From Rhodothermales bacterium (GTDB taxonomy: Bacteria > Bacteroidota > Rhodothermia > Rhodothermales > VXPQ01): DNA of 14,748 nucleotides. Position numbers and translations under genes: made by a program. Positions 1 to 14,748 of this stretch are shown piece after piece. The stretch spans positions 1 through 14,748 of the forward strand of contig JBBDTI010000011.1 of the NCBI GenBank assembly GCA_040904565.1, read 5' to 3'. The notes below the pieces were generated by a model that had not been told where the DNA came from, searched no databases, and saw nothing but the letters and a program-made list of their open reading frames with translations. Position 1 is the stretch's first letter, and the number at the start of each line of letters is the position of its first letter.

Positions 1-811
1 CGACGACCTCATCCATCCGCCCCCACAACTCCTTGTGCGCGATCTTTAGATGGATGATGTCGACCGAAATCTCCGCCCGGCGCCCCACCTCGATGGCTTC
101 AGCTACGGAGTCGAACACGCCCCTCCCCTCGTCGCGAATGTGCGTGGAATAGATGCCTCCGTGCTCGCGCGCCGTCCGTGCAAGGTCCACCAGCTGATCC
201 GTCGTCACGAGGCTCGCAGGCGGCATGAGCAGCGACGTAGACAGGCCCAGCGCCCCGTCCCTCATCGCGGCGTCGACGAGCTCCTTCATACGCACCACCT
301 CGTCTGGCGAAGCAGGCTGCTGTTCGAATCCCTTCACGTAGGTCCACACCTGGCCTTGACCGACGTACGAACAGATGTTGACGGCGACGCCCTGCTCCTC
401 GACGTGGTCGAAATAACCGCCCAGGGTCGTCCACGGCTTTACTCCTTCCCGAACCGGGCCGGCGGATGGGCCTTCCCCCAGCACCATCGTCGTAACCCCC
501 TGGCGCACCATGCTTTCGCAGAGCGGCTCGACGAGCAGCGACTCGTCCGAATGGTTATGGATGTCGATAAAGCCGGGTGCAACCGTGAGGCCGCCCGCAT
601 CGATGACGCGGTCCGCGCTCGCGCCGCTCAAATCTCCCAGCGCCGCAATGCGGCCGTCCCGCACTCCCACGTCGCCTCGGAAAGGATCCAATCCCGTGCC
701 GTCGACGAGGGTACCTCCCCTGACGAGTATATCGAAATGCTCACCCCGGCAGCCGAAGGCCGTAGAGAGCAGCAAACCGGTCGTCGCCTGCAGAAAGATT
801 CGACGATTCAT
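1..811 (-). CDS. N-acyl-D-amino-acid deacylase (D-aminoacylase)-like amidohydrolase, Tat lipoprotein; 3' end lies beyond the window
   Basis: Not in the ORF track because it has no stop in the window. Manual translation from ATG at 811 gives MNRRIFLQATTGLLLSTAFGC (twin-Arg, lipobox-like Cys), then FDILVRGGTLVDGTG...GDVGVRDGRI...IDAGGLTVAPGFIDIHNHSD...RQGVTTMVLGEG...AMRDGALGLSTSL...GGIYSTHIRDEG...IIHLK. These are typical D-aminoacylase-family motifs. The frame stays open for 270 codons to the window edge. Confidence 0.92.
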   Translation of the reverse strand, partial: MNRRIFLQATTGLLLSTAFGCRGEHFDILVRGGTLVDGTGLDPFRGDVGVRDGRIAALGDLSGASADRVIDAGGLTVAPGFIDIHNHSDESLLVEPLCESMVRQGVTTMVLGEGPSAGPVREGVKPWTTLGGYFDHVEEQGVAVNICSYVGQGQVWTYVKGFEQQPASPDEVVRMKELVDAAMRDGALGLSTSLLMPPASLVTTDQLVDLARTAREHGGIYSTHIRDEGRGVFDSVAEAIEVGRRAEISVDIIHLKIAHKELWGRMDEVV

Positions 812-853: not shown

Positions 854-1882
854 CTAACTGAGTCGTCGGACTCGGATGCGAAAGGCGTCGGCCGGATTGG
901 CGTGCAGCAGCTGCTCGACGTCCGCCTCTTCGAGTCCGGCCGACCGCAGTGCCGGAACGAGATGCGTCAGCATCGAGGTATACCCGCGAAACGAGCCCCC
1001 TCCTTCCTCTCCGACACTGTACCAGCCCGCATCCTGAGAGAGCAGCACGCGATCGATCACTCCGTGCCGATGCATGTTCACGACTCGTTCGACATCGCGC
1101 TCGACGGATGATTCACTGACCCCGTCGAATTCGACCCAGGCACCACGCCGGGCCGCTTCGACGTGCGCGGACAAATCCTCTTCCGCCTGCGCGTGCACCC
1201 AGATCCACGCGCTCGGGTGGACGCCGAGCTCTTCCAGTAGGTCTATCTGCTCGAATGCCGGCCCGGCCGGACCCGTATGTACTGCGATCGTGAGCCCCGT
1301 GGCCAGGTGGGTTAGGGCACCCGCCTCCACGAGCTTTCCGTCGATCTCCGACAGCGATCCCGCATCGACGCCGATTTTCACGAACCCCGGCCGAATACCC
1401 GTGCCCTCGATGCCGTCCCGCCATTCCGAAATCCAGCGGCCGGCCAGCTCGTCGACCGTGTCCGTGTACGCGTGCTCGGGAACGTGCTCGTCGGACCGGG
1501 CACCGTAGTACCCTGTGTTGGTGAGCATGTGCATCCCGCTGCGTTCCGACAACGCCCGCAGCACGAGCGGGTCCCGCCCGAGGTACGCGGGGGTAGCATC
1601 CACGACGGTTTGTACGCCGAGTTCTTTCACCTCGAGCAGATACGGCAGAACGGTGTCGACGATCTCCGCACGGTCGTAGCGCTGCGTCGCGGCTTCAGCC
1701 ACGGGGGCGAAATGTACCATGGCATGTTCGTGCGCCAGCGTCCAGCCCATCTGATCGGGCGCGAGCGCCCCACGTACGGTCATGATGCGCCCCAGCCTGG
1801 GCACGGGTACGCGCCCGGCACAACCGCTCCACACCGCAGCACCTCCGACCGTCCCAAATGTGAGGAATTGACGTCGGTTCAT
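854..1882 (-). CDS. Phosphotriesterase-family (PTE/PLL, COG1735-like) binuclear metallohydrolase, Tat lipoprotein
   Basis: Motifs IMTVRG, TLAHEH (HxH), VVDATPAYLGRD, TNTGYY, GFVKIG (carboxylatable Lys), AVHTG, WVHAQ, LLSQDAG, NPADAF. N-terminus MNRRQFL...WSGC. An alternative in-frame ATG at 1897 is created by a tandem duplication. Confidence 0.92.
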   Translation of the reverse strand: MNRRQFLTFGTVGGAAVWSGCAGRVPVPRLGRIMTVRGALAPDQMGWTLAHEHAMVHFAPVAEAATQRYDRAEIVDTVLPYLLEVKELGVQTVVDATPAYLGRDPLVLRALSERSGMHMLTNTGYYGARSDEHVPEHAYTDTVDELAGRWISEWRDGIEGTGIRPGFVKIGVDAGSLSEIDGKLVEAGALTHLATGLTIAVHTGPAGPAFEQIDLLEELGVHPSAWIWVHAQAEEDLSAHVEAARRGAWVEFDGVSESSVERDVERVVNMHRHGVIDRVLLSQDAGWYSVGEEGGGSFRGYTSMLTHLVPALRSAGLEEADVEQLLHANPADAFRIRVRRLS

Positions 1883-1903
1883 TACTTTTCGGTTCATTAC
1901 TTT
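1874..1903. repeat. Perfect 15-bp tandem duplication (TCGGTTCATTACTTT x2) spanning the PTE start codon
   Basis: 1874-1888 and 1889-1903 are identical. On the - strand each unit reads AAAGTA-ATG-AAC-CGA. Confidence 0.9.
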
Positions 1904-1944: not shown

Positions 1945-2826
1945 ATGAGCGATTCGGTCGGATTTATTGGACTCGGAATAATGGGCCGAGGCATGGCCCA
2001 CAATCTACTAAAAAACGGCGTGGACCTGACAGTGTGGAATCGGACACCCGCCAGGATGGAGCCGCTCGCCGAAGCAGGTGCCGGGACGGCCGATTCGCCG
2101 GGCGACCTGGCTTCCCGCTGTGACATCGTCATCACGTGCGTCAGCGATACGCCGGACGTCGTGGAGGTCGTCGAGGACATCCTCGATGAAGCGCGTGAAG
2201 GGAGTCTCGTCATCGACATGAGCACGATCAGTCCGTCCGTCACCCGAGAGCTGAACGAAAAATTGAACGAAAAGGGGATCCACATGTTGGACGCCCCCAT
2301 CAGCGGCGGCAGTGAAGGAGCGGCCGACGGCACGCTCAGCATCATGGTGGGCGGGGCGGCGGACCAGGTAGACCGGGCCATGCCCTACTTCGAAGCCATG
2401 GGAAGCACCATTACGCACGTCGGCGGCAACGGGGCCGGGCAAACCGTCAAGCTCGTGAACCAGGTTCTGGTCGTGATCAACATGCTGGCGGTTTCCGAGG
2501 CGCTTACGTTCGCTGAGGCGGGCGGACTCGACCTCGAAAAAACGCTGCAGGCCGTCTCGGGCGGTGCTGCCGGAAGCTGGATGCTGAGCAACCGAGGGCC
2601 GCAATGCGTCGACCGCGACTGGCGACCGGGTTTTACGATCGATCTGCAGCAAAAGGATCTACGCCTCGTGCTCGACGCCGCGGATGAGCTGGGCGTCCCG
2701 GCGCTCGGAACGAGCACCTGCTTCCACTACTATCGGACGCTGCAGCAGCAAGGGCTCGGAGCCGAAGGGAATCACGCCCTGATAAAGGCGCTCGAGCATT
2801 TATCCGGAATAGAAGTAGGGGGATAA
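1945..2826 (+). CDS. NAD(P)-dependent beta-hydroxyacid dehydrogenase (3-hydroxyisobutyrate dehydrogenase / 2-hydroxy-3-oxopropionate reductase family)
   Basis: GFIGLGIMG Rossmann motif, WNRT, DMSTISP, LDAPISGG, catalytic KLVNQ, F-x5-KDL. 293 aa with no signal peptide. Confidence 0.95.
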   Translation: MSDSVGFIGLGIMGRGMAHNLLKNGVDLTVWNRTPARMEPLAEAGAGTADSPGDLASRCDIVITCVSDTPDVVEVVEDILDEAREGSLVIDMSTISPSVTRELNEKLNEKGIHMLDAPISGGSEGAADGTLSIMVGGAADQVDRAMPYFEAMGSTITHVGGNGAGQTVKLVNQVLVVINMLAVSEALTFAEAGGLDLEKTLQAVSGGAAGSWMLSNRGPQCVDRDWRPGFTIDLQQKDLRLVLDAADELGVPALGTSTCFHYYRTLQQQGLGAEGNHALIKALEHLSGIEVGG

Positions 2827-2952: not shown

Positions 2953-3528
2953 CTAGCTGTCGGACGCAAAGACGACATCGAAGTGGATGGTGACATCGTC
3001 CCCCGTGCGCAGCGCGCCGAACATGGCCGTCGGCGGGCGCATCCCGTAGTTCGTCAATTTCAACGGCGAATTTCCCGTATATCGGATCGACCCATCGTCG
3101 AGTCGCTCGGCCTGCACGTCCATCTCGACCTCATTCGTCACGCCCGCGAGAGTGAGTTGTCCCGTCGTGTGCAGGAGGGTCTCGTCGTCCTCGGACGGCA
3201 CGGCCTCGATCATCTCGTACGTGATCACGGGGTGCTCGTCGACCTTCAGGGTCTGGTACATGAGGCGATCCATGATCGTGCTTTTCTGGCTCTTGATCAT
3301 GTCTGCCGTTACGGTAAGCCTTAGCGAACCGGGGACCGTCCCATCCATCTCTCCGGCGACGGCGCTCATCTCCTGCGCGTAGACCGTCCAGTCATCGCGA
3401 TTGGACGTTCCATCTATCCACAATTCACTCTCCTCGGAAAGGGTCATCTCCTGGGCGGCCAGCGGAGGAGCGGTCGCCGCAAGGGCAAGAAGCCAGACGG
3501 CGGCGATTGCGAGTCGTAAGTATGTCAT
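2953..3528 (-). CDS. YceI-family lipid/polyisoprenoid-binding protein, Sec-exported
   Basis: Signal peptide ending PLAA-Q. Motifs SELWIDGTSN..DW, MDRLMYQTLKVDEHPVITY, TGQLTLAGVT, LTNYGMRPP..MFG.L.TGDDVTIHFDV. 191 aa. Confidence 0.9.
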   Translation of the reverse strand: MTYLRLAIAAVWLLALAATAPPLAAQEMTLSEESELWIDGTSNRDDWTVYAQEMSAVAGEMDGTVPGSLRLTVTADMIKSQKSTIMDRLMYQTLKVDEHPVITYEMIEAVPSEDDETLLHTTGQLTLAGVTNEVEMDVQAERLDDGSIRYTGNSPLKLTNYGMRPPTAMFGALRTGDDVTIHFDVVFASDS

Positions 3529-3588
3529 CGGTATCGTGCTATTTATGGAGGGCGTCGAGAACGTCAGTCGACAATATGCGTTAGCAAA

Positions 3589-3597
3589 AGTATATCA
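3589..3597 (-). promoter_or_regulatory. Candidate extended -10 promoter (TG-A-TATACT) for the YceI gene
   Basis: The reverse complement of 3589-3597 is TGATATACT. It lies about 60 nt upstream of ATG 3528 in a locally AT-richer region. Confidence 0.5.
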
Positions 3598-3673
3598 GGT
3601 GTAATCGCAGGCTGTAGGAGAATCAACCAGGGTCGTTACCGGATTCTCTCCTATAGGTGTACAGGTCGTCTCT

Positions 3674-3694
3674 TTATACTATTCTCGTTATACT
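3674..3694 (+). promoter_or_regulatory. Candidate -10 elements (TATACT x2) for the oxidoreductase operon
   Basis: TTATACT at 3674-3680 and 3688-3694. No convincing -35 element. It would imply a leader of about 200 nt. Confidence 0.4.
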
Positions 3695-3905
3695 GTTCAA
3701 CATAGAGTTGGTCCGACACGTCGCGTCCTCGAACGTTACGTGCAGTGCCGATCATCACTCCGAATAAGATAACAATGCCGTACTACTGCTCGAGAGACAG
3801 GATTATTGGCATCCACACCGGCGAACTCGACCGTACTGATTCTAGCGTTTAACGCTCCACGATCGACCGCATCCACACGAGCCCCATTACCAAACTCCAG
3901 GCACC

Positions 3906-5270
3906 ATGAAAAAGTCTGACAAAAAGTCTAAAGCGTTCAAACATGTAGACGGTTCTCGCCGCGACTTCGTAAAGAAGAGTGCACTCGCCGCGACAGCGAT
4001 ACTTACCGGCTATTCTCCTCATCTCGCGGGAGCAGCCGAAAAAGCGGCGGCACCTGCATCCGGCAGCGTGTTAGGTGCAAACGATCGAATCCGCCTCGGG
4101 TTCATCGGCGTCGGTGGACAGGGCTATAACGCCCACGTCGGCTCGATCGCCGACAACGGCGGCGACTTCAACGTCGAGGGCGTGGCCGTATCCGACGTCT
4201 TCAACAAGCGCCGCGACCGCGCCGCGTCGAAGCTCGAGCTGGCCTCCGACAGCGCCTACCCCGATTACCGCGCCGTCCTGGACCGCGACGACATCGATGC
4301 CGTATTCATCGGCACGGTCGACCACTGGCACTCGCGCATCGCAACGGAGGCGATGGATGCCGGCAAGCACGTCTACTGCGAGAAGCCGATGACGCGCTAT
4401 CTGGATGAAGCCTTCCAGATCTACGACAAGACGAAGGAAACGGGACTGAAATTCCAGATCGGATCTCAGTATTGCACGGAAGGCAAGTGGCACAAGGCCG
4501 CCGAAATGATTCAGGCCGGCATGATCGGTCCGCTCGTGCTCGCGCAGGACTCCTACATGCGCAACAATCCGAACGGCGAGTGGAATTACACGATCGACGA
4601 GGACGCGAATCCGCGGAACATCGACTGGCCGACCTGGCTCGGACCGGTTTCAGACCGTCCCTTTAGCGCGGATGAATATCACCGCTGGAGGAAATATTTC
4701 CCGTACTGCGCGGGCATTCTCGGCGACCTCCTCGCCCACCGCATCCATCCGCTCATGCTGGCCACGGGCGCGCCCGAGTTTCCGACACGCGTAGCCTGCC
4801 TCGGTACCCGGAAGATCACGACGGATCGCGACGTAGCCGACAACACGCAGGTTCTCGCGGAATTCCCGAACGGATTGACGATCATGGTTATCGGCAGCAC
4901 CGTCAACGAACAGGGACTCGAGCAGGTCATTCGCGGTCACGAAGGCACGCTTTATTTCGGTGGAAACACCGTCGAGCTGCGTCCCGAGCGGCCGTTTGCG
5001 GATCTGGTCGATGCCGTGTCGCACGACAACGTCCAGCCGGGCGTCAGCGTACCGGCGCACATCAACAACTGGCTTACTGCGATTCGCGAAGACGGTCAAC
5101 CGAGCGGCAACATTGATCTCGCGATCCGTGCACAGACCGTCATCTCGCTCGCTGAAATGTCCGAGCGCCTCGGTGAGATGCTCTATTTCGACGAGAAAAC
5201 GAGGGAGGTCACGACGGGCAGCGGTCGCAAGATCGAGCCGATTACGTACGGAACCCTCGAGCTGTCTTAG
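3906..5270 (+). CDS. Gfo/Idh/MocA family oxidoreductase, Tat-exported (Gfo-1)
   Basis: Tat motif SRRDFVK, then GANDRIRLGFIGVGGQG, DAVFIGTVDHWH, HVYCEKPM, FQIGSQ, W..WLGP, RWRKY..Y..GILGDLLAH. 454 aa. Confidence 0.95.
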   Translation: MKKSDKKSKAFKHVDGSRRDFVKKSALAATAILTGYSPHLAGAAEKAAAPASGSVLGANDRIRLGFIGVGGQGYNAHVGSIADNGGDFNVEGVAVSDVFNKRRDRAASKLELASDSAYPDYRAVLDRDDIDAVFIGTVDHWHSRIATEAMDAGKHVYCEKPMTRYLDEAFQIYDKTKETGLKFQIGSQYCTEGKWHKAAEMIQAGMIGPLVLAQDSYMRNNPNGEWNYTIDEDANPRNIDWPTWLGPVSDRPFSADEYHRWRKYFPYCAGILGDLLAHRIHPLMLATGAPEFPTRVACLGTRKITTDRDVADNTQVLAEFPNGLTIMVIGSTVNEQGLEQVIRGHEGTLYFGGNTVELRPERPFADLVDAVSHDNVQPGVSVPAHINNWLTAIREDGQPSGNIDLAIRAQTVISLAEMSERLGEMLYFDEKTREVTTGSGRKIEPITYGTLELS

Positions 5271-5295
5271 TTCAACCGACTCGACGGTACGTCGG

Positions 5296-6243
5296 ATGGT
5301 TACGGTTCGCCTTGCACGGATGGCGATGGCCTGCCGGTTTGAGCTCGTCCTGCAGGGCGAACACGAGCCGTGGCTTCGCGCCGCCGGCGAGGAGGCGTTG
5401 CGGGAGATCGAGAGGCTGGAACAGATGCTCTCGATCTTCCGCCCCGGTTCCGACGTCTCGCGGATCAACGCGCGTGCGGCGCGCGAACCCGTTCGTGTTA
5501 ACCCCACCGTATTCAAATGGCTGGAAGAGGCCCAGCGCCTGCACCGGCAGACCGGCGGTGCCTTCGATTTGACGATCGCGCCGTTGATGCAGGCGTGGGG
5601 CTTCTACGAAGACGGGGGATGTCTGCCGGATGCGGCCGAGCTGGCAGCGGCACGGCGTTGTACGGGAATGAATCTCGTTGAACTGGATACGGCAAACCGA
5701 ACCGTGGCCTTTCAGCGTGAAGGGATGCGGCTGGATTTCGGCGCGATCGGGAAGGGACTGGCTGTTGACGAAGCCATTTCTATACTGCGCGAGGCCGGAG
5801 TCGAACGCGCCTTTCTGCATGGGGGCACGAGCACGATGTACGGTCTCGGTCGTCCGTTCGACGAACCCGGCTGGAAGGTCGTCGTACCATACCCCGACCG
5901 ACCGGCCGAGCCGGTAGGCGTCGTAACACTCGTTGACGAGTCGCTTTCCGTCTCGGCCGTTTGGGGCAAGTCGTTCGAGGCAGAGGGTCGGACGCTGGGC
6001 CACGTCCTCGATCCCGTGAAGGGGCGACCGGTTCAAGGTGCCGTTCTGGCTGCCGTGGTAGACCCCTCAGGCACAGTGGCAGACGCCGTATCGACGGCGC
6101 TGCTCGTTCGCGGTAGCCCGTTCGAGAACTCAGCCATCCGTTCTCTCGTCATAGTTGTCGACGATGAATCCGACACGTATTCCATACTCGATGCCGGGCT
6201 ATCCGCAGATGATCACGCGGTTACCCGTTCGGCCCATTCCTAA
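5296..6243 (+). CDS. apbE: FAD:protein FMN transferase (ApbE family) without a signal peptide
   Basis: AMACRF, LSIFRPGSDVSRIN, TGGAFDLTIAPLMQAWGF, LDFGAIGKG.AVD, SLSVSA, GHVLDPVKG.P, ADAVSTAL. Start re-called to ATG 5296, 25 nt after the Gfo-1 stop (315 aa). The ORF-track start at 4960 lies inside Gfo-1. Confidence 0.92.
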   Translation: MVTVRLARMAMACRFELVLQGEHEPWLRAAGEEALREIERLEQMLSIFRPGSDVSRINARAAREPVRVNPTVFKWLEEAQRLHRQTGGAFDLTIAPLMQAWGFYEDGGCLPDAAELAAARRCTGMNLVELDTANRTVAFQREGMRLDFGAIGKGLAVDEAISILREAGVERAFLHGGTSTMYGLGRPFDEPGWKVVVPYPDRPAEPVGVVTLVDESLSVSAVWGKSFEAEGRTLGHVLDPVKGRPVQGAVLAAVVDPSGTVADAVSTALLVRGSPFENSAIRSLVIVVDDESDTYSILDAGLSADDHAVTRSAHS

Positions 6244-6255
6244 TCCCAAGGCATT

Positions 6256-7518
6256 ATGACAAACCTACCGGAAGCCGGCAACCTCAGTCGACGTAGTTTT
6301 CTAAAGAAGAGCTCGCTGGTCCCGATAACGACCGTGCTGGCCGGGCTGCGCAGCGAGAAGGCGCGAGCCGACGCCTTCGCGGACGACGTGAACGTGGCCG
6401 TGATCGGATTTGGATCCTGGGGTCGCGAGGTCGCCGCGACGCTGGAGCGCATTCCGGAAGTGAGACTCGCCGCGATCGTCGACACGTACAGCGTCATGCT
6501 GACCCGAGCAGAACGCTCCTTCCCGGACGCAGCCACGTATGAAGATTACCGGGCCGTACTGGACGATGCGTCCATTTCGACGGTCCTGATCGCGACGCCG
6601 ACGCATCTGCATCACCAGATCGCCATCGAGGCACTGGATGCCGGTAAGCACGTGTACGTGGAGGCTCCTATGGCTTCGACGGTGGAGGACGCCCGGGCGA
6701 TGGCGCGGGCAGCGCGTGACGCCACGGATCAGATCTACCAGGTGGGCCTTCTATCCCGATCGCATCCAAACTATCGTTCCGTATTTCAGTTCATCCGCAG
6801 CGGCGCGCTGGGCAAGGCCACCATGGCGCGCGCGCAGTGGCACGCCAAGGAGAGCTGGAGGCGGGCCTCTCCGAACCGGGAGCGGGAGATCGCGCAGAAC
6901 TGGCGGCTCGACTCGGACGTATCGACCGGGCTCATCGGAGAGATCGGTACGCATCAGATCGATCCCGCGATGTGGTTCCTGGCGGCACGCCCCGTATCCG
7001 TCGCCGGATTCGGACAGATCATGCTGTGGGACGACGGTCGCAACGTCCCCGACACGATTCAGACCGTGTTCGAGTTCGATAACGACGTCCACATGCTGTA
7101 CGATGCGACACTAACGAGCTCGTTCGACGCCGCTTACGACGTCTACAACGGCCGTGACAGCTCGATCATGTTCCGGGACAACAGAGCGTGGATGTTCAAG
7201 GAGGTTGATGCGCCGCTGCTCGGTTGGGAGGTATATGCGCGGAAGGACAATTTCTACAAGGAAACCGGTATCGCACTGGTCGCCGACGCCACGCAGCTGG
7301 ATGCGCAGGACGTCGACCCGACCGAGGACGACCCCAATCTCGAGACGCCGTTGTGGTATGCCCTGCGGGAGTTCATCGACAATCATGCCTTCGGCCCCTA
7401 TCCCCCGTCGGCGGGTTACGAAGAAGGGTACCGCGCGGCCGTAGTCGCCGTCAAAGCGCACGAGGCGACGATGAACAACGAACGCATTGAGTACGACGAC
7501 GCTCTCTTTGAAATCTAG
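6256..7518 (+). CDS. Gfo/Idh/MocA family oxidoreductase-like protein, Tat-exported, atypical EAP motif (Gfo-2)
   Basis: Tat motif SRRSFLK, then VAVIGFGSWG, VLIATPTHLH, GKHVYVEAPMA, YQVG, NWRL....STGLIGEIGTHQID. 420 aa, starting 12 nt after the apbE stop. Confidence 0.92.
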   Translation: MTNLPEAGNLSRRSFLKKSSLVPITTVLAGLRSEKARADAFADDVNVAVIGFGSWGREVAATLERIPEVRLAAIVDTYSVMLTRAERSFPDAATYEDYRAVLDDASISTVLIATPTHLHHQIAIEALDAGKHVYVEAPMASTVEDARAMARAARDATDQIYQVGLLSRSHPNYRSVFQFIRSGALGKATMARAQWHAKESWRRASPNREREIAQNWRLDSDVSTGLIGEIGTHQIDPAMWFLAARPVSVAGFGQIMLWDDGRNVPDTIQTVFEFDNDVHMLYDATLTSSFDAAYDVYNGRDSSIMFRDNRAWMFKEVDAPLLGWEVYARKDNFYKETGIALVADATQLDAQDVDPTEDDPNLETPLWYALREFIDNHAFGPYPPSAGYEEGYRAAVVAVKAHEATMNNERIEYDDALFEI

Positions 7519-7624
7519 CTCCACCTGCGCGGACACTCCTTATGGTGCCGATCCGAATGCGCAGATTCGGCCTACGCGTCGGCCGCCTTCGTGCCATCTA
7601 AGACACAAAACCCGTTACAGCAGC

Positions 7625-8740
7625 ATGCAGCAAAACGAGCGACCTCGCACCCGACGCGTCTTCTTACAGGAAGCCTCCGCCCTGCTCGGCGGAGCGGCCA
7701 TTGCCGGTATAACCACGTCGCAGGCGGCAGCTTCTTCTCGAAGACGTGCAGCCGGACTCGGAATCGCGCTCGTAGGACTCGGGAATTACGCAACCGGACA
7801 GCTCGCACCGGCGCTTCAGGAGACCGAGCGATGCCATCTGGCCGGCATCGTTACGGGGACGCCGGCGAAGGCCGAGCGCTGGATGCAGGAATACGACATT
7901 CCCACCTCGAACGTATACGATTACGACTCCTTCGACGAGATCGCCGGCAACGCCGACGTCGACATCGTATACGTGGTGCTTCCCAACAGCATGCACCCGG
8001 AATACGTGATCCGTGCGGCGGAGGCCGGGAAACATGTCATCACGGAGAAGCCGATGGCGACGTCCGCGGCCGACTGCGAGCGCATGATCGAAGCCTGCGA
8101 CCGGGCCGGCGTAAAGCTGTCGGTCGGCTATCGCCTGCAATTCGAGCCGCGCCACCAGGAGATCATGCGGCTCGGTCAGGAGGAAGTGTACGGCCCGGTT
8201 ACGGCCGTAGAAGGGAGCTTCGCCTTCACGTACCGGGATACGGACGCCTGGCGCTTCAGCAAGGAAATGGCCGGCGGCGGGGCGCTCCTCGACGTGGGTA
8301 TTTACTCCATTCAGGGCGCACGCTACACGATCGGCGAGGAGCCCGTTAGCGTTCGCGCGTCCGCCTACAACACGCGGCCGGATATCTTTACCGAGATCTA
8401 CGAGACGATCCTTTGGGACATGCAATTCCCGGGTGGCGCCGTCTCGACCCATACCACGTCGTACTCCGGGAACGTGAACCGCCTGTACATGATGTCTACC
8501 CGCGGCTGGGCTGAAATCAATCCGGCTTACAGCTACGGCGGGCTCTCCGGCCGAACGAGCGAAGGTGCCATGGATTTTCCGCAGGTCACGCAGCAAGCCC
8601 TGCAGATGGACGATTTCGCCCGCTGCATCGAAGAAGACGAAGAGAGCCGCGTACCGGGAGAGGAAGGACTGCGAGACATGAAAGTGATCGAAGCGATCTA
8701 TCGTTCCATCGATTCGGGGAGTGAATGGGTAGATGTATAG
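7625..8740 (+). CDS. Glucose-fructose oxidoreductase / aldose-aldose oxidoreductase-like Gfo/Idh/MocA enzyme, Tat-exported
   Basis: Start re-called to ATG 7625 (MQQNERPRTRRVFLQ, Tat). Motifs ALVGLGNYA, DIVYVVLPNSMH, TEKPMA, GYRLQFEP and WR..KEMAGGGALLDVGIY, the DxGIY catalytic Tyr motif of the GFOR subfamily. 371 aa. Confidence 0.92.
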   Translation: MQQNERPRTRRVFLQEASALLGGAAIAGITTSQAAASSRRRAAGLGIALVGLGNYATGQLAPALQETERCHLAGIVTGTPAKAERWMQEYDIPTSNVYDYDSFDEIAGNADVDIVYVVLPNSMHPEYVIRAAEAGKHVITEKPMATSAADCERMIEACDRAGVKLSVGYRLQFEPRHQEIMRLGQEEVYGPVTAVEGSFAFTYRDTDAWRFSKEMAGGGALLDVGIYSIQGARYTIGEEPVSVRASAYNTRPDIFTEIYETILWDMQFPGGAVSTHTTSYSGNVNRLYMMSTRGWAEINPAYSYGGLSGRTSEGAMDFPQVTQQALQMDDFARCIEEDEESRVPGEEGLRDMKVIEAIYRSIDSGSEWVDV

Positions 8741-8780
8741 CACGGAGCCGCACACCATTCCATTCACCCGACCGTTCCGC

Positions 8781-9989
8781 ATGCACGTACTTCTACCTCT
8801 CCTCGCCGCGCTCCTTCTGACCGCTTGCGAGTCCCCAGTCCCCAGGCATGATGCCGCGATGGATACGTCTATCGATTCGTTTCGGACGTTCCAGGAAGAT
8901 CTTGACTTTCTCACAGCTCAAGGAGACGTGCAGCTCCTGCGCGCGCCGAGCGGGGGCGTCGTCGCCGTCTCCGCTCGATACCAGGGTCGCGTAATGACGA
9001 GCGCCGTCTCGCCGGATGGCGTCAGTGCCGGCTACGTCAACCGCGCGTTTATCGAGGCCGGTGAAACGGGTACGCAGTTCGATAATTTCGGAGGCGAAGA
9101 CCGGTTCTGGCTGGGACCGGAAGGCGGCCAGTACGGCATCTATTTCCCTCCGGGCGCAGCGTTTACGCTCGACACGTGGCAGGTGCCCCAGGAGATGCAG
9201 ACGGGTACGTGGGAGGTGACGGCGCAATCGGATACCAGTGTGACCTTCCATTGGTCGATGGCTGTCGTCAACTATAGCGGAACCACGTACGATATGGAGG
9301 TCGAACGGACCGTTCGCCTGCTGAATGCGGACGAGGCGGAGACGTATTTCGGGCAGCGTATTCCGGCCGGTGCCGAATACGTGGCCTTCGAGTCGGTCAA
9401 CCGCGTAACAAACGTCGGTGCTGATGCATGGATGCCCGAGAGCGGCCAGCCCAGTATCTGGATCCTCTGCATGTACCCTCCGCTGGGCACTTCCTGGGTG
9501 GCCGTGCCGTTCGCCGGCCCGACATCCGACTACGTGATTGCCAGCTATTTCGGAGACATTCCCCCGGATCGGCTCGAGATACGTGAGGGATATGCCCTCT
9601 TCAAGGCCGATGGCGCATATCGTAGCAAAATCGGCGTGGCCCCCGCCAATGCCCGCCCGATACTCGGCAGTTTCAGTCCGGCAGCCGAGCTACTCACGCT
9701 GGTGCAGTTCGATCTGCCTGAGGATGCGTCGCGCTACGTCAACAGTCAGTGGGAGATCCAGAACCAACCCTACGCGGGAGACGTCGTTAACAGCTACAAC
9801 GACGGTCCGCCGGGCGCAGGCGGATTCTACGAGATGGAGTCGAGCTCCCCGGCACTCGGACTGGCACCCGGCGATGTCTATACCCACCGGCACCGGACCC
9901 TGCACATCACGGGCAACCGCGATCTACTCGACGAGCTCGCCCGCGACGCACTGGGCACGACCGCTTCGGAGATGGAAGCCGGCATCTAG
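8781..9989 (+). CDS. Conserved lipoprotein of unknown function (probably DUF6786-like)
   Basis: Start at ATG 8781 gives MHVLLPLLAALLLTAC (lipobox). The alternative start at 8733 overlaps the upstream stop. Conserved-looking blocks: YQGRVMTS, NFGGEDRFWLGPEGGQ, SIWILCM, YFGDIPPDRL, FKADG.YRSKIG, YVNSQW, PY.GDVVNSYNDG, FYEMESSSPA. The family name is from recall and was not searched. Confidence 0.75.
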   Translation: MHVLLPLLAALLLTACESPVPRHDAAMDTSIDSFRTFQEDLDFLTAQGDVQLLRAPSGGVVAVSARYQGRVMTSAVSPDGVSAGYVNRAFIEAGETGTQFDNFGGEDRFWLGPEGGQYGIYFPPGAAFTLDTWQVPQEMQTGTWEVTAQSDTSVTFHWSMAVVNYSGTTYDMEVERTVRLLNADEAETYFGQRIPAGAEYVAFESVNRVTNVGADAWMPESGQPSIWILCMYPPLGTSWVAVPFAGPTSDYVIASYFGDIPPDRLEIREGYALFKADGAYRSKIGVAPANARPILGSFSPAAELLTLVQFDLPEDASRYVNSQWEIQNQPYAGDVVNSYNDGPPGAGGFYEMESSSPALGLAPGDVYTHRHRTLHITGNRDLLDELARDALGTTASEMEAGI

Positions 9990-10039: not shown

Positions 10040-11908
10040 CTATTGGCTGGCAGGATGGAGTCCGCCTCCCATCCTGTTCCAAAAGATAAACGTACCGCGG
10101 GTGCCCGACGAGATGACGTCCGGCGCCCCGTCCCCGTTCATGTCCACCACTTCGAATTCGGAACCGACGCCCGACTTATTGTGGATGAGGTCGGGCTCGA
10201 AACGGACACCGCCCGGTGCATCGACGTCGCGCACCGTGCGATACCAGTACACCACGGCTTCCCCATCGTGATCGGCATCCAGGTACTGATTCAGGTGTGA
10301 CCAGTGCCGTTTGCCCGTCACGAAATCCTTCACGCCGTCGCCGTCCATGTCGGCCACGAGGGCTCCTGAATGAACCTGAGAGAAGGCCACGCCACCGGCA
10401 TTCCTGGTGGCGAGATTCTCGAAGATCGTACGCTTCACAAAGGAAATCCCGCCGTCGTCACCGCGGATCTGCTCGTACCAGTAGAGGCCCCGGCTGTGCG
10501 CGTAATTGGATGCGACGACATCGTTAAGTCCATCTCCGTTGAAATCGTAGACGGTAATCGCCCCGCCGCGTCCGAAATTACCCTCGTGGTGCGTCCACGT
10601 CCCCTGATCGGGTCCTGCAGCAGGCTGCTCCCACCATCCGTACTGATTGAGCACGTCGGCACGTCCGTCGCCGTTTACGTCGCCCACTCCGAGTCCGTGT
10701 GCGGTACAGCCGTCTCCGAACGGCTCTGAGATGTGATGAACCGGCCACACGGCCGTCGGGTCGTTCGGATCGGGCTCGCCATACGCGAGTCTTCCGTCAC
10801 CTCCGGAGTACACGAATTCCGGCTCACCGTCATTGTCAACGTCATACTTGATAACGATCTCACTGCATATTTCAGGCAGTGCATCGTAGCGTGTCCAGTG
10901 CCGCCGCTCGCCCTGGGGGTTGACGTAGAGCACGAGGGCACGGCTTTCGGTCGCCAGTACGTCGTCCCACCCGTCCCCCGTGAAGTCTCCACTGAAGGTC
11001 ACCATGTCTGGGACGTACTCCTCGCCCGGATGGTAGGTGCGAGAGCGATAGATTTCGTGACGGGTACGGTAATCCGGCGCGAGGTAATAAAACGGTCCGG
11101 ATACCAGGTCGAGCATCCCGTCGTTATTGATGTCCCCGGCATCGACCCCCCAGGCGTGATAGAATTCGTTCAGCTGCTGCACGCGAAAGTGATAGGAGCT
11201 CCACTCCGGCTCGAAGTCCTGCCGAAGCAGGTTGCGCGTCGATACATCGTCGAACTCGACGCTTCCGGATCCGACGTACAGTCCGATCGGTCCGAACCCG
11301 AAGGTCACTTCTGGATCGTAATGTGCCGGCGCGTTGAACGAACCCGTGGTTTCGAGATCCTGTGCCGAACCCACCGGGAACTCGTGCCATCCATGACCCA
11401 GATCGTGGTGAATGTTGTTGCCCTCCACGGTGACGGACAGATCGTTCCATTCACCAGGCACGATACTTGGTGCGTCGTCTCCGGCCGATTCGCCGGCTGG
11501 TTCGCTTGTCAGGATAGTGCCATCGCTATCGAGCGTGACCCGGAAAACCCTGGAGGTGCCGTCATGGAGACGGACCAGCAGTCCTTTCATTCCCGACGCC
11601 GTCTCCTCGATACGAAGCAACACACCCGCGTCGCACGCTCCGTCGCACCGAAAGCGCGTGAAAAACGCCGCGTCCTCATAACTTCGATCAAACAGAAGCA
11701 TGCCGCCGTCCGAGCCGGCGTTTCCGTGGATAATCCCGTTTTCGGCCGCCCATTCGGCTCCACCAACGGCCTGCCATTCCTGAAGCTCGGACCCCTCGAA
11801 CGTATAGCGGGGAACGAAATGCGGCGCGGGACTCATCTGCCCGATGGCCGATATCGGCAGCAACGTGGCGATCAGCACCGTCAGTGCGAATACGTGTCTC
11901 ATAAACAT
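10040..11908 (-). CDS. Secreted fusion: DUF1080-like (3-ketoglycoside hydrolase-type beta-sandwich) domain + seven FG-GAP/VCBS-type repeats
   Basis: Start re-called to ATG 11908 or 11902 (MFMRHVFALTVLIATLLPISAIG-Q signal). N-domain FEG..L..W...GGAEW.AENG.IHG...L...RSYED...GEWN...V.V.G...GPIGL...VEF. Seven DxxxDG Ca-binding repeats: DINNDG, DFTGDG, DVDNDG, DVNGDG, DFNGDG, DMDGDG, DMNGDG. Confidence 0.85.
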   Translation of the reverse strand: MFMRHVFALTVLIATLLPISAIGQMSPAPHFVPRYTFEGSELQEWQAVGGAEWAAENGIIHGNAGSDGGMLLFDRSYEDAAFFTRFRCDGACDAGVLLRIEETASGMKGLLVRLHDGTSRVFRVTLDSDGTILTSEPAGESAGDDAPSIVPGEWNDLSVTVEGNNIHHDLGHGWHEFPVGSAQDLETTGSFNAPAHYDPEVTFGFGPIGLYVGSGSVEFDDVSTRNLLRQDFEPEWSSYHFRVQQLNEFYHAWGVDAGDINNDGMLDLVSGPFYYLAPDYRTRHEIYRSRTYHPGEEYVPDMVTFSGDFTGDGWDDVLATESRALVLYVNPQGERRHWTRYDALPEICSEIVIKYDVDNDGEPEFVYSGGDGRLAYGEPDPNDPTAVWPVHHISEPFGDGCTAHGLGVGDVNGDGRADVLNQYGWWEQPAAGPDQGTWTHHEGNFGRGGAITVYDFNGDGLNDVVASNYAHSRGLYWYEQIRGDDGGISFVKRTIFENLATRNAGGVAFSQVHSGALVADMDGDGVKDFVTGKRHWSHLNQYLDADHDGEAVVYWYRTVRDVDAPGGVRFEPDLIHNKSGVGSEFEVVDMNGDGAPDVISSGTRGTFIFWNRMGGGLHPASQ

Positions 11909-12029
11909 GCGATTATTCCGTTCGTGCAAGGGTAACGATTGGAAGGCGTGCGATCCAGACAGACTTAAAAGGGGCTGCGGTCGTCGAAGTACGGTCGTCG
12001 GAAAGCAGCCCAAGGTACGTGTGAACGTA

Positions 12030-12092
12030 TACGTGGGCGTCACGGCATAGAAGTCGATAGCAACTGAATGGTACGTGCCGGCGTCACGGCAT
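12030..12092. repeat. Intergenic direct repeat TACGTG(CC)GGCGTCACGGCAT x2
   Basis: Exact 13-mer GGCGTCACGGCAT at 12036-12048 and 12080-12092. Each copy is preceded by TACGTG. Confidence 0.65.
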
Positions 12093-12093
12093 G

Positions 12094-14244
12094 TTAGTTG
12101 GAAGGCAGCGCAAACGCTACGTAGGCCGGCGTACCCGAATCATCGTCCCCCCCCGGCACCGAGACGACCACGTACTGCCTGCCGCCGACCTCGTAGACGG
12201 CCGGAATCCCTTCGCCAGATGCTGGAAGATCGCCCGTCCACAATACGCTGCCATCCTCGACGTCGTACGCGATCAGCTGGCGGGCAGCCGCCTGAAAAAT
12301 GAGTCCGCCGGCCGTAACTGCCGGCCCGCCGGAAACGATGCTAACCCCCGTGCCCGTAATCCCGCGATCGGCCAGTGCCGGCTCATCGCCTACGGGCACC
12401 TGCCACTTCATCGTCCCCTCGTTCAGATCGTAGGCCGTCAGGCGTACCCAGGGCGGCTTCGCGAGCGGCAGGCCGTCGCTGTCGACGATGTGATCCCATC
12501 CGCTTTGATAGCGCACGGGCCCGTCCGTTGACGTATCGTCTGACGTGCCCGACGACAGGGCAAGATCGGGCGTGGCGAGATACGACCGAAGCGCCTGAAG
12601 CTCACCCTCTCCGAGATGCCCGAACGAGGGCATCGTGCCGCGTGGACTGCTCAGCACGTCGGAGAACTCACTTTCACTGAGCCGGTGCGTCACGTCGTGC
12701 AGGGACGGAATCCCGGCCGGCGGCTGACCGCCGAGGTCCGCTCCGTGACAGAGACTGCAATTCTCCTGGTACAACACGAGTCCTCTGTCGATAGGAGACC
12801 CCCCTGTCCCGAGCTGCGTACCGGTGATTTCCTTCAGCTCCATGACCATCGGCCGGTTGCGTGCGAGGACGAAAAACGTCCCGGTGCCCGGATCGGCGGC
12901 CGTGGATCCCCAGTTGGAGCCACCCGAGTTACCGGGTATCTGCAACGTCGGATGCGTGCTCGGCGGCGTGTACAGCCCCTCGTAGTCCATATTCCCGACC
13001 ACCTGTAAGATCGAATCCCGCTCCGCGTCCTTCAGATATGGATTTGCATCCTTATCGAGATCGAACGTGATGGGCAGAAACGGCTCCGGTTTGGTCGGAA
13101 ACGGCTGCGTGGGCCATGCCTGTTCGCCCGGCATCTTGGAGGGCGGCACGGATCGCTCCTCAATAGGCCAGAGAGGTTCACCCGTCTCACGGTTGAAGAC
13201 GAATACGAAGCCTTGCTTCAGCGCCTGAGCGACCACATCCACCGGCTCGCCTTCGTGCTCGACCGTAAGGAGCACCGGACTCGCGGCCAGGTCGTAGTCC
13301 CACAGATCGTGATGAACGGTCTGAAAGTGCCATATACGCTCGCCGGTCCGCGCGTCGAGCGCGACGAGCGAATTGGCGAACAGATTCTTCCCTGGGCGAT
13401 CGACGCCGTAAAAATCGTAGTTGGCGGATCCGAGTGGGACATACGCGATGCCGCGTTCTCTGTCGACGCTCAGTCCGCCCCAGGCGTTGGCCCCGCCGCG
13501 TGCCGTGTTCGGATCGAAATTGTCGTTGTCGGACCGTCCTTCGGGCCAGGTATCATATCCGAACTCGCCCGGCTGCGGAAGCGTGTTGAAAATCCACTCC
13601 TGGCTCCCCGTCCGCACATTGAACGCGCGAATGTGCCCGGGAGCGACGTTGTAGCCCTCCCCCGGAGACGACCCGTAAATGATCAGGTCCTCAAAAACGA
13701 CCCCCGGTGCCGGACCGGTCGCCCTCATCACGAGCTCGGGATCCGGTCCGAGTCCGTATCTCAGATCTACTCGCCCGCCCGTGCCGAAATCTTCCAGCAA
13801 TTCTCCCGTCTTGGCATCCAATCCGACGAGATAACGACTTCCTTCCTGGAAGAAGACGCGACGGTCGGACCGGTCGTCACTCTGCCAGTACGACACGGCG
13901 CGCGCTCGGAATCCGGCTGTGGGGAACGACCACAGCTCGCGCCCGGTGCCGGCGTGCAGAGCGACGACGGCGTTGTCCTCACCGACGACGTACATAAAGG
14001 TGTCGGCCACAATCGGATTGATCCGCGGCACGTCCGGCGATTCGTACATCCACGCAACTTCAAGTTGATGGACGTTCGAGCGGTTGATCTGGTCGAGCGA
14101 CGAAAAACTGGTCGCACCGGACGGCCCCTCGTACCGCATCCACGACCCGTCGCCCACCGAGGAATCCACAACGTCGCCGCCGCAGCCGGATAGCACTCCG
14201 GTCAAAACGACGACGAGAAAATTGCAAAAAAATGCTCGATTCAT
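12094..14244 (-). CDS. PQQ-dependent glucose/quinate-dehydrogenase-like quinohemoprotein (PQQ beta-propeller with inserted cytochrome c), lipoprotein
   Basis: Lipobox VLSGC after ATG 14244. An alternative GTG at 14307 overlaps the upstream TGA. Motifs SSLDQIN..NV..L.VAW, GHIRAFNVRTG...W.F, GGANAW, NLFANSLVALDARTG..IWHFQTVHHDLWDYD, PTQPFP, GGSNWG, haem motif CSLCH with GTMPSF, KPPW..LTAYDLNEG..KW, PAVYEVGGRQYVVV. Confidence 0.92.
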   Translation of the reverse strand: MNRAFFCNFLVVVLTGVLSGCGGDVVDSSVGDGSWMRYEGPSGATSFSSLDQINRSNVHQLEVAWMYESPDVPRINPIVADTFMYVVGEDNAVVALHAGTGRELWSFPTAGFRARAVSYWQSDDRSDRRVFFQEGSRYLVGLDAKTGELLEDFGTGGRVDLRYGLGPDPELVMRATGPAPGVVFEDLIIYGSSPGEGYNVAPGHIRAFNVRTGSQEWIFNTLPQPGEFGYDTWPEGRSDNDNFDPNTARGGANAWGGLSVDRERGIAYVPLGSANYDFYGVDRPGKNLFANSLVALDARTGERIWHFQTVHHDLWDYDLAASPVLLTVEHEGEPVDVVAQALKQGFVFVFNRETGEPLWPIEERSVPPSKMPGEQAWPTQPFPTKPEPFLPITFDLDKDANPYLKDAERDSILQVVGNMDYEGLYTPPSTHPTLQIPGNSGGSNWGSTAADPGTGTFFVLARNRPMVMELKEITGTQLGTGGSPIDRGLVLYQENCSLCHGADLGGQPPAGIPSLHDVTHRLSESEFSDVLSSPRGTMPSFGHLGEGELQALRSYLATPDLALSSGTSDDTSTDGPVRYQSGWDHIVDSDGLPLAKPPWVRLTAYDLNEGTMKWQVPVGDEPALADRGITGTGVSIVSGGPAVTAGGLIFQAAARQLIAYDVEDGSVLWTGDLPASGEGIPAVYEVGGRQYVVVSVPGGDDDSGTPAYVAFALPSN

Positions 14245-14303
14245 AGTCCGTAAAAGGCCGCGCGAAACGAGGACCCGGCGCATCGGCGGACACGCCTCCA
14301 CCC

Positions 14304-14748
14304 TCACTCCGCAACGGCATCTGGTTGTGACAAGAAAATGTTGGTACCGTAGCGGGTAGCCGACATCACGTCAGGCAGCCCGTCTCCGTTCAGGTCAGCC
14401 GTCGTCATGTCGGTACCGACGCCCGTATGGTTGTTAATCAGCTCCGGTTCGAACCGGACAATGTCCCCGTCTCGAACGAGACGGAACCAGTACATCACGG
14501 GATCGCCGAACGCATCGGGATCCGTAGGATTCTCCCCGAAATGCGCCCACCAGCGCTTGCCCGTCACGATATCTTTCAGTCCATCCCCGTCGATGTCGTC
14601 CAGAAAGGCCACTTCGTTATCCACGGACGGAATGACCATATACTTCTCCCATCGGCGTACCTCCTCTCCCGGATTCACGTAGAGGAATCCGGGGCGACCC
14701 GGCTCTCCCGTATGGAGCACGTCGGGATATCCATCACCCGTAACGTCG
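14304..14748 (-). CDS. FG-GAP/VCBS repeat protein, C-terminal part (5' end outside the window); paralog of 10040-11908 with an apparent internal deletion
   Basis: The frame is open from the window edge: DVTGDGYPDVLHTG...LYVNPGEE.RRW...NEVAFLDDIDGDGLKDIVTGKRWWAH...YWFRLVRD...RFEPELINNHTGVG...DLNGDGLPDV. It is collinear with the C-terminal domain of 10040-11908. Confidence 0.85.
   Translation of the reverse strand, partial: DVTGDGYPDVLHTGEPGRPGFLYVNPGEEVRRWEKYMVIPSVDNEVAFLDDIDGDGLKDIVTGKRWWAHFGENPTDPDAFGDPVMYWFRLVRDGDIVRFEPELINNHTGVGTDMTTADLNGDGLPDVMSATRYGTNIFLSQPDAVAE

Follow-up and report, generated by a model that had tools for sequence, protein, structure and literature searches.

We describe three adjacent genes in a stretch of 14,748 nucleotides from a Rhodothermales bacterium (GenBank assembly GCA_040904565.1; hereafter the window, which is positions 1-14748 of contig C11 in a 4.02 Mb genome of 95 contigs that is 94.9% complete). 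It is somewhat probable, judging from comparison of sequences, that their products act as one unit: two oxidoreductases of the Gfo/Idh/MocA family, which we refer to as Gfo1 and Gfo2 and which are predicted to leave the cytoplasm by the twin-arginine translocation (Tat) pathway, and between them a homologue of the flavin transferase ApbE (ApbE-1), which would attach flavin mononucleotide (FMN) to Thr346 of Gfo2 in the cytoplasm before Tat export. The comparisons support the finding as a whole moderately well. The genes and the sites within them are:

3906..5270 (+): Gfo1, Tat-signal Gfo/Idh/MocA oxidoreductase of the C2 type, 454 amino acids; PF01408 (5.5e-18), PF19051 and PF22725
3957..3962 (+): twin-arginine codons R18 R19 of Gfo1, from the translation (GSRRDFVKKSALAATAILTG)
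5296..6243 (+): ApbE-1, homologue of FAD:protein FMN transferases (FAD, flavin adenine dinucleotide) without a signal peptide, 315 amino acids; PF02424 (1.9e-60)
6256..7518 (+): Gfo2, Tat-signal Gfo/Idh/MocA protein and proposed flavinylation client, 420 amino acids; PF01408 (1e-22) and PF22725
6289..6294 (+): twin-arginine codons R12 R13 of Gfo2; R12, R13, F15 and L16 are invariant
6661..6669 (+): E136-A137-P138 in the sequence of Gfo2, in place of the family's E-K-P
7291..7293 (+): Thr346 codon of Gfo2 (ALVADAT346QLD), candidate FMN attachment site from its alignment column

On the forward strand the gene order is Gfo1, ApbE-1, Gfo2, Gfo3 and DUF6786 (open reading frame calls and Pfam, window), with spacings of 25 nucleotides between Gfo1 and ApbE-1 (5271-5295), 12 between ApbE-1 and Gfo2 (6244-6255) and 106 between Gfo2 and Gfo3, whilst Gfo3 and DUF6786 overlap by 8. 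A first-pass annotation of this DNA had placed an ApbE tightly between two Tat-signal Gfo proteins, with the same 25- and 12-nucleotide gaps, and the reading frames, Pfam matches and twin-arginine motifs bear this out, as Pfam does its statement that the window holds no classical ApbE client (no FMN_bind, Nqr/Rnf or NosR gene). Export is predicted for both Gfo1 and Gfo2 from an N-terminal motif of the S/T-R-R-x-F-L-K type and the hydrophobic stretch that follows it, read from the sequence as G-S-R-R-D-F-V-K in Gfo1 and as L-S-R-R-S-F-L-K in Gfo2, where the arginine pair is invariant in orthologues; the Pfam TAT_signal model was not reported for either protein at E ≤ 0.01, and was reported for the internal signal of P0038, one of the fusion proteins described below. 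No terminator-like site lies between the module genes on the forward strand, a single weak one falls inside ApbE-1, promoter and terminator scans of the window did not rise above shuffled expectation, and Rfam gave no match in the window.

To follow the three genes across the order, 61 Rhodothermales genomes were searched with each protein, using orthologue cut-offs of at least 41% identity for ApbE-1 (other ApbE matches reached 37% at most), E ≤ 1e-150 for Gfo2 and E ≤ 1e-167 for Gfo1. Thirty-six genomes have orthologues of all three, 24 have not one of them, and the sole exception is a 62% complete genome (G037) with only a 41%-identical ApbE. The complete Gfo1-ApbE-Gfo2 order is present at 31 of 35 Rhodothermales loci; of the four that miss it, one reaches a contig end (L014), one lies in a fragmented assembly with the pieces on other contigs (L021), and two from a single genus (L030 and L032) keep ApbE and Gfo2 as a pair with Gfo1 on another contig. 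A second set of loci came from scanning species-representative genomes with a Gfo2 alignment and taking the best 80 of 563 relatives. In this set ApbE lies immediately upstream of Gfo2 at 62 of the 73 loci with at least 1200 nucleotides of room, and among the 65 loci with at least 3600 nucleotides upstream, Gfo1 precedes Gfo2 at 54 and a gene for a YceI-like protein is present at 50. One cultured species, Roseithermus sacchariphilus, has the module (locus L071). The three-gene arrangement is conserved far beyond chance, and chance co-location of the genes was rejected on synteny and co-occurrence. Synteny across genomes had been put forward in the first-pass annotation as a check, and the order holds through Rhodothermales and recurs in two or three other phyla.

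ApbE-1 matches PF02424 over profile positions 5-248 of 266 and finds ApbE/FmnB chains in the PDB at 5.8e-30 for the best; against the NCBIfam model PRK10461 it scores 96 bits where the cut-off is 498, and so is not an equivalog of the E. coli type. Its Ser220, His236 and Asp263 are the aligned counterparts of Ser241, His257 and Asp285 of the V. cholerae enzyme, which PMC12052999 singles out as conserved, and all three are invariant in 18 ApbE-1 orthologues. Among 100 orthologue loci, in which duplicated genomes are counted, the frame is closed by a stop less than 20 codons ahead of the aligned Met1 at 44, where there is therefore no room for a signal peptide, and a hydrophobic stretch in a possible N-terminal extension appears at one (L225, in a reading frame overlapping the upstream gene), which agrees with the signal-less transferase of the first-pass annotation. 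A signal peptide or lipobox and a periplasmic location are typical of ApbE proteins, not universal. Cytosolic members are on record, such as the partner of the Klebsiella fumarate reductase mentioned in PMC12052999, so that a missing signal peptide does not exclude ApbE-1 from the family. ApbE-1 is predicted to be a cytoplasmic enzyme which has kept its catalytic residues and carries out Mg-dependent FMN transfer.

The two Gfo proteins differ in their catalytic residues. In Gfo1 the Rossmann glycines G68, G70 and G73 of the G-x-G-x-x-G pattern are invariant, as are E159-K160-P161 and D274-x-x-x-H278, so the catalytic motifs are intact; its best PDB matches are 8tdf/8tdh, entitled 'dehydrogenase' (3.5e-23), its nearest NCBIfam model is the BT_2158_fam glycoside 3-dehydrogenase (118.6 bits vs. 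a cut-off of 750), and the 120 listed matches of its homologue search carry generic names only. Gfo2 also has invariant Rossmann glycines (G51, G53 and G56), together with Asp76, the acidic residue after strand 2, and it reaches 98.3 bits against the BT2158-type model NF058561 (cut-off 750). None of 81 aligned Gfo2 rows has lysine at the E-K-P position, where A predominates as the second residue and V, S and F also occur; Glu229 is conserved and His233 is variable, and the catalytic E-K-P and D-x-x-x-H pattern is therefore not present in Gfo2. A search of the ESM Atlas returned generic Gfo clusters only.

Conservation in Gfo2 is highest in an insertion that precedes the C-terminal helices, AWMFKEVDAPLLGWEVYARKD-FYKE-GIAL-A[ND]A[TS]-LDAQ, and residue 346 is threonine in 18 of 18 orthologues and threonine or serine in all 81 aligned rows. 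Gfo2 was compared, without a profile, to 1.84 billion representatives, which yielded 174 proteins at E ≤ 1e-30, of which 150 are listed; column analysis used the 92 listed representatives of at least 380 amino acids together with the Gfo2 of the window (93 in total). The Thr346 column holds the last residue of a canonical [ST]GA[ST] flavinylation motif in 21 of the 93 (for example VDGVSGAT, VDAISGAS and VDSVTGAS, all in proteins with E-K), falls in an x-x-[AS]-[ST] tetrad in 43 more and in neither in 29. An alignment-free count gave the same position: 20 of 24 [ST]GA[ST] occurrences in the 93 proteins lie 70-125 residues past a W-x-D-G-R anchor, with 65-85 residues left to the C-terminus (two are elsewhere and two are in proteins without the anchor), and Thr346 is at +88 from the anchor and 74 from the C-terminus. 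Profile alignment to a solved relative, 3e18, puts a loop at the place of Thr346, between the sheet domain and the last helices. These comparisons indicate that Thr346 is positionally homologous to the canonical ApbE flavinylation motifs of its relatives, and Gfo2 is the likely client; Gfo1, Gfo3 and DUF6786 contain no motif of the D-x-x-[S/T]-G-A-[S/T] type. The N-A-T of Gfo2 orthologues was also considered as a glycosylation sequon and rejected, as the window has A-D-A-T.

Among the 150 matches listed, four are single proteins of ~650-720 amino acids in which ApbE, a Tat-signal-like segment and Gfo2 follow one another, each the representative of a separate 50%-identity cluster with 1 to 4 contigs. 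Two Planctomycetota contigs carry the fusion as a single open reading frame without a break (100% and 45% identity to fusion P0056), preceded on both by a gene for a Tat-signal Gfo1-like protein (40% identity). In none of the four fusion clusters seen is Gfo1 the partner of ApbE; in all of them it is Gfo2. At the place of Thr346 the fusions read D-A-E-A-T, D-A-M-A-T, D-V-N-A-T and D-P-E-A-T, and the clade most tightly tied to ApbE is therefore the one with the shortened A-T motif. A domain N-terminal to a Tat signal stays on the cytoplasmic side of the membrane, by the established topology of the pathway, and as ApbE lies N-terminal to the signal in the fusions it is placed in the cytoplasm, where it would act before export. 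This bears on a different role for the gene order, in which ApbE-1 would hitch-hike to the periplasm on a Tat-exported Gfo protein and serve there either as transferase or as a subunit that stably holds FAD. For other enzymes it is established that partners lacking a signal are exported together with a Tat substrate, and ApbE-1 is both signal-less and encoded between two Tat substrates; however, the cytoplasmic placement of ApbE in the Planctomycetota fusions, the lipoprotein-type ApbE that the genome already has for periplasmic work and the simpler supply of FAD in the cytoplasm make such a passenger quite improbable.

Nine of the 80 Gfo2 loci lie outside the order, eight in Verrucomicrobiota and one in Omnitrophota, and have neither ApbE nor Gfo1 beside Gfo2. 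At seven of the nine a YceI gene is directly downstream of Gfo2 (L111, L114-L117, L125 and L126, at ~7400-8200 (+)), and a gene for ThuA or a ThuA-DUF1080 fusion is upstream, where annotated, at L117, L126 and L127 (L126:4434-5939, L127:3137-4528). We searched five Verrucomicrobiota genomes with this Gfo2-YceI pair for ApbE: four carry an ApbE-1 orthologue elsewhere (51-54% identity), directly after a Gfo1 orthologue (50% identity) in two, divergent from a C2-type Gfo paralogue in one and alone in one, and the fifth, a 10-Mb bin, has six ApbE matches. The three genes travel together even when they are not neighbours. A search for Gfo2 in 151 Verrucomicrobiota genomes, with 10 candidates per genome scored, returned at E ≤ 1e-80 only the query's own genome. 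In two Verrucomicrobiota genomes a rhomboid-family protease gene with a DUF6576 tail comes after the ApbE-1 orthologue (L221:7605-8516 (-) and L224:10197-11135 (+)).

Adjacency of Gfo1 and ApbE is kept in Rhodothermales, in Planctomycetota and in two of the four Verrucomicrobiota genomes, even with Gfo2 elsewhere, and Gfo1, as the catalytically intact protein, would need an electron outlet most. ApbE-1 might then flavinylate Gfo1, or both Gfo proteins, at a site that has no recognisable motif, with Gfo2 an accessory or a separate enzyme. We consider this unlikely, as no motif-like serine or threonine in Gfo1 is conserved across three phyla: the best candidate, T332 in G-S-T332-V-N-E-Q-G, is glutamine in both Planctomycetota orthologues. 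Moreover, the four fusion clusters join ApbE to Gfo2 only, and the ApbE-Gfo2 pairing survives where Gfo1 is missing from the locus or is on another contig (L030, L032, L088 and L092).

Several observations weigh against Gfo2 as the flavinylated partner. Eleven of the 73 Gfo2 loci have no ApbE directly upstream, and these counts, drawn from two sets of loci that share genomes and contain kin which are not independent, are a measure of breadth and not statistics. One Rhodothermales locus (L073) has no ApbE match at all, and at another (L100) ApbE and Gfo2 are ~4.5 kb apart with IS605-type (OrfB/TnpB) and DDE transposase genes between them (L100:1795-5705). In Verrucomicrobiota ApbE-1 stands beside Gfo1, not Gfo2, so adjacency alone is not specific for Gfo2. 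Relatives of Gfo2 with the canonical motif, which in the genome scan (80 loci) come mostly from Flavobacteriaceae, Cytophagales, Sphingobacteriales and Chitinophagaceae, seldom have an ApbE nearby: one lies within 5 kb at just 5 of 80 loci, and in each case it is the immediate neighbour. In the motif as published, D-x-x-[S/T]-G-A-[S/T], replacement of the Gly or Ala approximately halves flavinylation of the Klebsiella reductase, as described in PMC12052999. The A-L-V-A-D-A-T of Gfo2 keeps only the A-T, with the S/T at -3 and the Gly at -2 replaced. The Gfo2 motif could be a degenerate relic, in a clade that also lacks the catalytic residues, or Thr346 could be conserved for some other role.

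All five ApbEs found beside canonical-motif relatives begin with a hydrophobic signal, and the Gfo proteins paired with them contain VDGVTGAT. The canonical motif thus occurs with ApbEs that are exported, whereas the signal-less ApbE-1 accompanies the A-[ND]-A-T clade, a covariation that, in few and related cases, would fit a shift of specificity together with a shift of compartment. It also bears on a reading in which the linkage is real and ApbE-1 has another task, such as FAD pyrophosphatase activity or flavin handling in the maturation of Gfo proteins loaded with nicotinamide adenine dinucleotide (NAD), with Thr346 catalytic or structural. Some proteins of the ApbE family do hydrolyse FAD (Treponema Ftp, in PMC4436053), and the Gfo2 loop departs from the published motif; but the transferase triad is invariant, and the homologous loop holds textbook flavinylation motifs in relatives with which ordinary exported ApbEs are paired, so that we find this reading rather unlikely.

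The genome contains one other ApbE gene:

C56:2-961 (-), with its 3' end at C17:9997-10209 (-): lipoprotein-type ApbE split over contig ends, with a hydrophobic lipobox-like N-terminus, GGIAKG and TSGD

Divergent from it is a gene of the FGE-sulfatase type (C56:696-1670 (+)), followed by a gene for a Tat-signal Gfo protein (C56:1674-3029 (+)) in which no [ST]GA[ST] motif was found. Both ApbEs of the genome thus adjoin exported Gfo genes. The 95% complete genome gave no match to FMN_bind or DUF2271, and the models NQR2/RnfD/RnfE gave one weak 24-bit match, a 299-amino-acid membrane protein without SGAT, leaving no clear Nqr/Rnf subunit; DUF3570 gave no match either, though its control was silent too and the result is uninformative. 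The first-pass annotation had allowed that this might be the genome's only ApbE and serve Nqr or Rnf encoded elsewhere, which proved not to be so, and ApbE-1 as a housekeeping enzyme for these complexes was rejected given the second, lipoprotein-type ApbE and the absence of a clear Nqr/Rnf. A genome scan for D-x-x-[ST]-G-A-[ST] matched 19 open reading frames, and the six translated (including C4:12157 and C42:21020) provided no convincing client, their motifs being in doubtful frames or upstream of the likely start. Searched with a canonical-motif relative (E ≤ 1e-8), the genome has at least 28 Gfo/Idh/MocA paralogues of at least 300 amino acids, of which 13 show [ST]RR.[FLIV] in the first 120 residues of the open frame. 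One Tat-motif Gfo on the contig of the window and outside it (C11:36479-37981 (-)) has S-Q-S-G-A-S near its C-terminus (residue ~422), and is a possible client of the exported ApbE.

That protein, with its S-G-A-S, is among the candidates for a reading in which the client of ApbE-1 is unrelated and encoded at some other place, the position of the ApbE-1 gene being an accident of history, and the low adjacency of ApbE to canonical-motif relatives (5 of 80) points the same way. Against this, 60 of the 61 genomes contain either all three genes (36) or not one of them (24), with the incomplete G037 as the one exception, ApbE and Gfo2 are fused in single genes, and the linkage is conserved over three or four phyla, which leaves an unrelated client very unlikely.

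In the reading we prefer, that of Gfo2 as client, ApbE-1, without an export signal, would be active in the cytoplasm, where FAD is available, and would join FMN through a phosphoester bond to Thr346 in the conserved Gfo2 loop, after which the folded, flavin-carrying Gfo2 would be exported by Tat. Glucose-fructose oxidoreductase (GFOR) is exported folded by Tat with its NADP, according to PMC8121099. Gfo1 has kept the lysine and histidine and has no tagging loop, whereas Gfo2 has the loop and has lost the lysine and often the histidine, and from this we infer a division of labour. Gfo1 would use its tightly bound NAD(P) to oxidise a sugar or glycoside, most likely at C3, the FMN tethered to Gfo2 would take the hydride from the enzyme-bound NAD(P)H, and the electrons would pass on to a quinone, possibly held by YceI, or to a cytochrome. 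The idea of a flavinylation-dependent Gfo system, raised in the first-pass annotation, is partly supported by these results; cytoplasmic tagging before Tat export and the unlikeness of Gfo1 and Gfo2 were not foreseen there.

A bolder version of this scheme, possible though on the doubtful side, sees a glycoside dehydrogenase of two subunits in the periplasm and takes Gfo2 as a catalytically dead Gfo paralogue whose flavin acts as a tethered second substrate, swinging into the active site of the NAD-holding Gfo, taking the hydride and delivering to a quinone presented by YceI. If true, electrons from sugars would enter respiration by a new route, and the recycling of exported NAD enzymes would have a general explanation. 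Domains of the YceI-like X158 type bind polyisoprenoids, ubiquinone-8 among them, as reported in PMC8981238. The YceI gene changes position between lineages: in Rhodothermales it lies upstream of Gfo1 and is divergent from it, in Verrucomicrobiota it comes directly after Gfo2, and the association of YceI with Gfo2 is conserved independently of ApbE. A second hint at the acceptor is a membrane protein encoded at 22 of the 66 loci with room for it, within 400 nucleotides after Gfo2 and mostly 13-16 nucleotides from it: a 670-amino-acid EtfD/HdrD-like Fe-S protein that has several membrane helices at its N-terminus, a 4Fe-4S dicluster and two CCG domains (for example L041:11754-13778, L083:7255-9279 and L092:7252-9276), which is absent from the window. 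As to the substrate, the BT2158-type family is nearest for both Gfo1 and Gfo2, far below cut-off, DUF1080 occurs in the window and, in other phyla, beside Gfo2, and a Gfo2::ThuA fusion (P0030, 647 amino acids, the fifth among the matches listed) and ThuA-DUF1080 neighbours link the Gfo2 clade to 3-ketoglycoside formation of the ThuAB type; each of these is a weak hint.

The rest of the window is made up as follows:

2-811 (-): amidohydrolase fragment, upstream of the module
854-1897 (-): Tat-signal phosphotriesterase-family protein, upstream of the module
1945-2826 (+): 3-hydroxyisobutyrate-dehydrogenase-like gene, upstream of the module
2953..3528 (-): YceI-like periplasmic lipocalin, divergent from Gfo1; PF04264 (2.5e-13)
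3529..3905 (no strand): divergent intergenic region of 377 nucleotides, G+C ~0.55 vs. ~0.62 elsewhere, presumed promoter region for yceI and the Gfo1 operon
7625..8740 (+): Gfo3, Tat-signal Gfo/Idh/MocA protein by Pfam, like GFOR and xylose dehydrogenase, E-K-P intact
8733..9989 (+): DUF6786 lipoprotein-like protein; PF20583 (2.2e-125)
10040-12043 (-): FG-GAP/VCBS protein with an N-terminal DUF1080 (3-keto-disaccharide hydrolase) by Pfam, convergent with the operon
12094-14307 (-): pyrroloquinoline quinone (PQQ) quinohaemoprotein dehydrogenase with an inserted cytochrome c domain by Pfam, convergent with the operon
14304-14747 (-): FG-GAP fragment, convergent with the operon

Gfo3, DUF6786 and the divergent YceI gene were not mentioned in the first-pass annotation. 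Gfo3 matches the NCBIfam model XylDh_Gfo6 at 2.2e-60, below its cut-off, and follows Gfo2 in the closest relatives only (L049-L059, L066 and L102), being a lineage-specific addition to the operon; DUF6786 is present at 2 of the 80 loci (L049 and L053). The region at 3529..3905, in which neither a sigma-70-like site nor an Rfam match was found, would hold the promoters of yceI and the Gfo1 operon. The genes convergent with the operon form a neighbourhood of periplasmic sugar-oxidising genes. Genes for the phosphotriesterase-family and YceI proteins again adjoin the module in a sister genus (L036), and DNA of the genome is present in sediment metagenome runs.

Dehydrogenases of the Gfo/Idh/MocA family that leave the cytoplasm are very common in Bacteroidota, Planctomycetota, Verrucomicrobiota and Acidobacteriota. 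The periplasmic re-oxidation of their NAD(P)H, which does not exchange, is an open question, as PMC8121099 says for BT2158, and if the proposed flavinylation of Gfo2 is true, covalent FMN would be an electron outlet for these enzymes and the few known ApbE client families would gain one with a Rossmann fold. Cytoplasmic tagging followed by Tat export would be an unreported order of events, to which both the signal-less ApbE and the ApbE::Tat::Gfo2 fusions point. Flavinylation by ApbE, ApbEs of the cytosol and the export of cofactor-loaded Gfo enzymes through Tat are already known one by one; a literature search, outside which subscription journals and the supplementary tables of PMC8238504 lay, found no Gfo/Idh/MocA client of ApbE, no dedicated signal-less ApbE for Tat substrates and no flavin tagging before export.

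Established ApbE clients are NqrC/NqrB, RnfG/RnfD, NosR and PceC, to which DUF2271 and DUF3570 were added from orphan apbE neighbourhoods, as listed in Meheust et al. 2021 (PMC8238504). The module resembles these systems in the enzyme family and its triad, in a transferase encoded beside its client and in the use of the last Ser/Thr of a short loop motif, and differs in that the proposed client is a Rossmann protein of the Gfo/Idh/MocA family, whose fold none of the listed clients has, the motif A-[ND]-A-T rather than [ST]GA[ST] and the transferase without a signal peptide. The initial ApbE/FMN-binding search described in PMC8238504 dropped genes without a signal peptide or lipidation site, and it may for this reason not have covered a signal-less class. 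The cytoplasmic ApbE of Klebsiella pneumoniae, as presented in PMC12052999, is likewise a signal-less paralogue beside a classical lipoprotein ApbE and flavinylates in the cytoplasm, yet its client, a soluble fumarate reductase, stays there and has an FMN_bind domain with the canonical motif, whereas the candidate here is exported by Tat and has another fold. BT2158 (NF058561; Liu et al. 2021, PMC8121099) is similar as an exported Gfo/Idh/MocA protein among genes for 3-keto-glycosides, with tightly bound NAD(P); Gfo1 and Gfo2 fall below the cut-off of its family and are not members, and BT2158 involves no flavin or ApbE, the authors of that source proposing that a second sugar re-oxidises its cofactor. 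ThuAB and LacABC, cytochrome c-dependent according to the same source, also channel periplasmic glycoside oxidation into the respiratory chain, and ThuA is a fusion partner or neighbour of Gfo2 in other genomes; however, there is no ThuA in the window, and LacABC is a FAD enzyme of the GMC type. Zymomonas GFOR is likewise a Tat-exported Gfo protein, with non-dissociable NADP loaded in the cytoplasm, whose ping-pong mechanism has a second substrate re-oxidise the cofactor, whereas in the module the proposed tethered FMN would replace the second sugar and the work would be divided between two unlike subunits served by a tagging enzyme.

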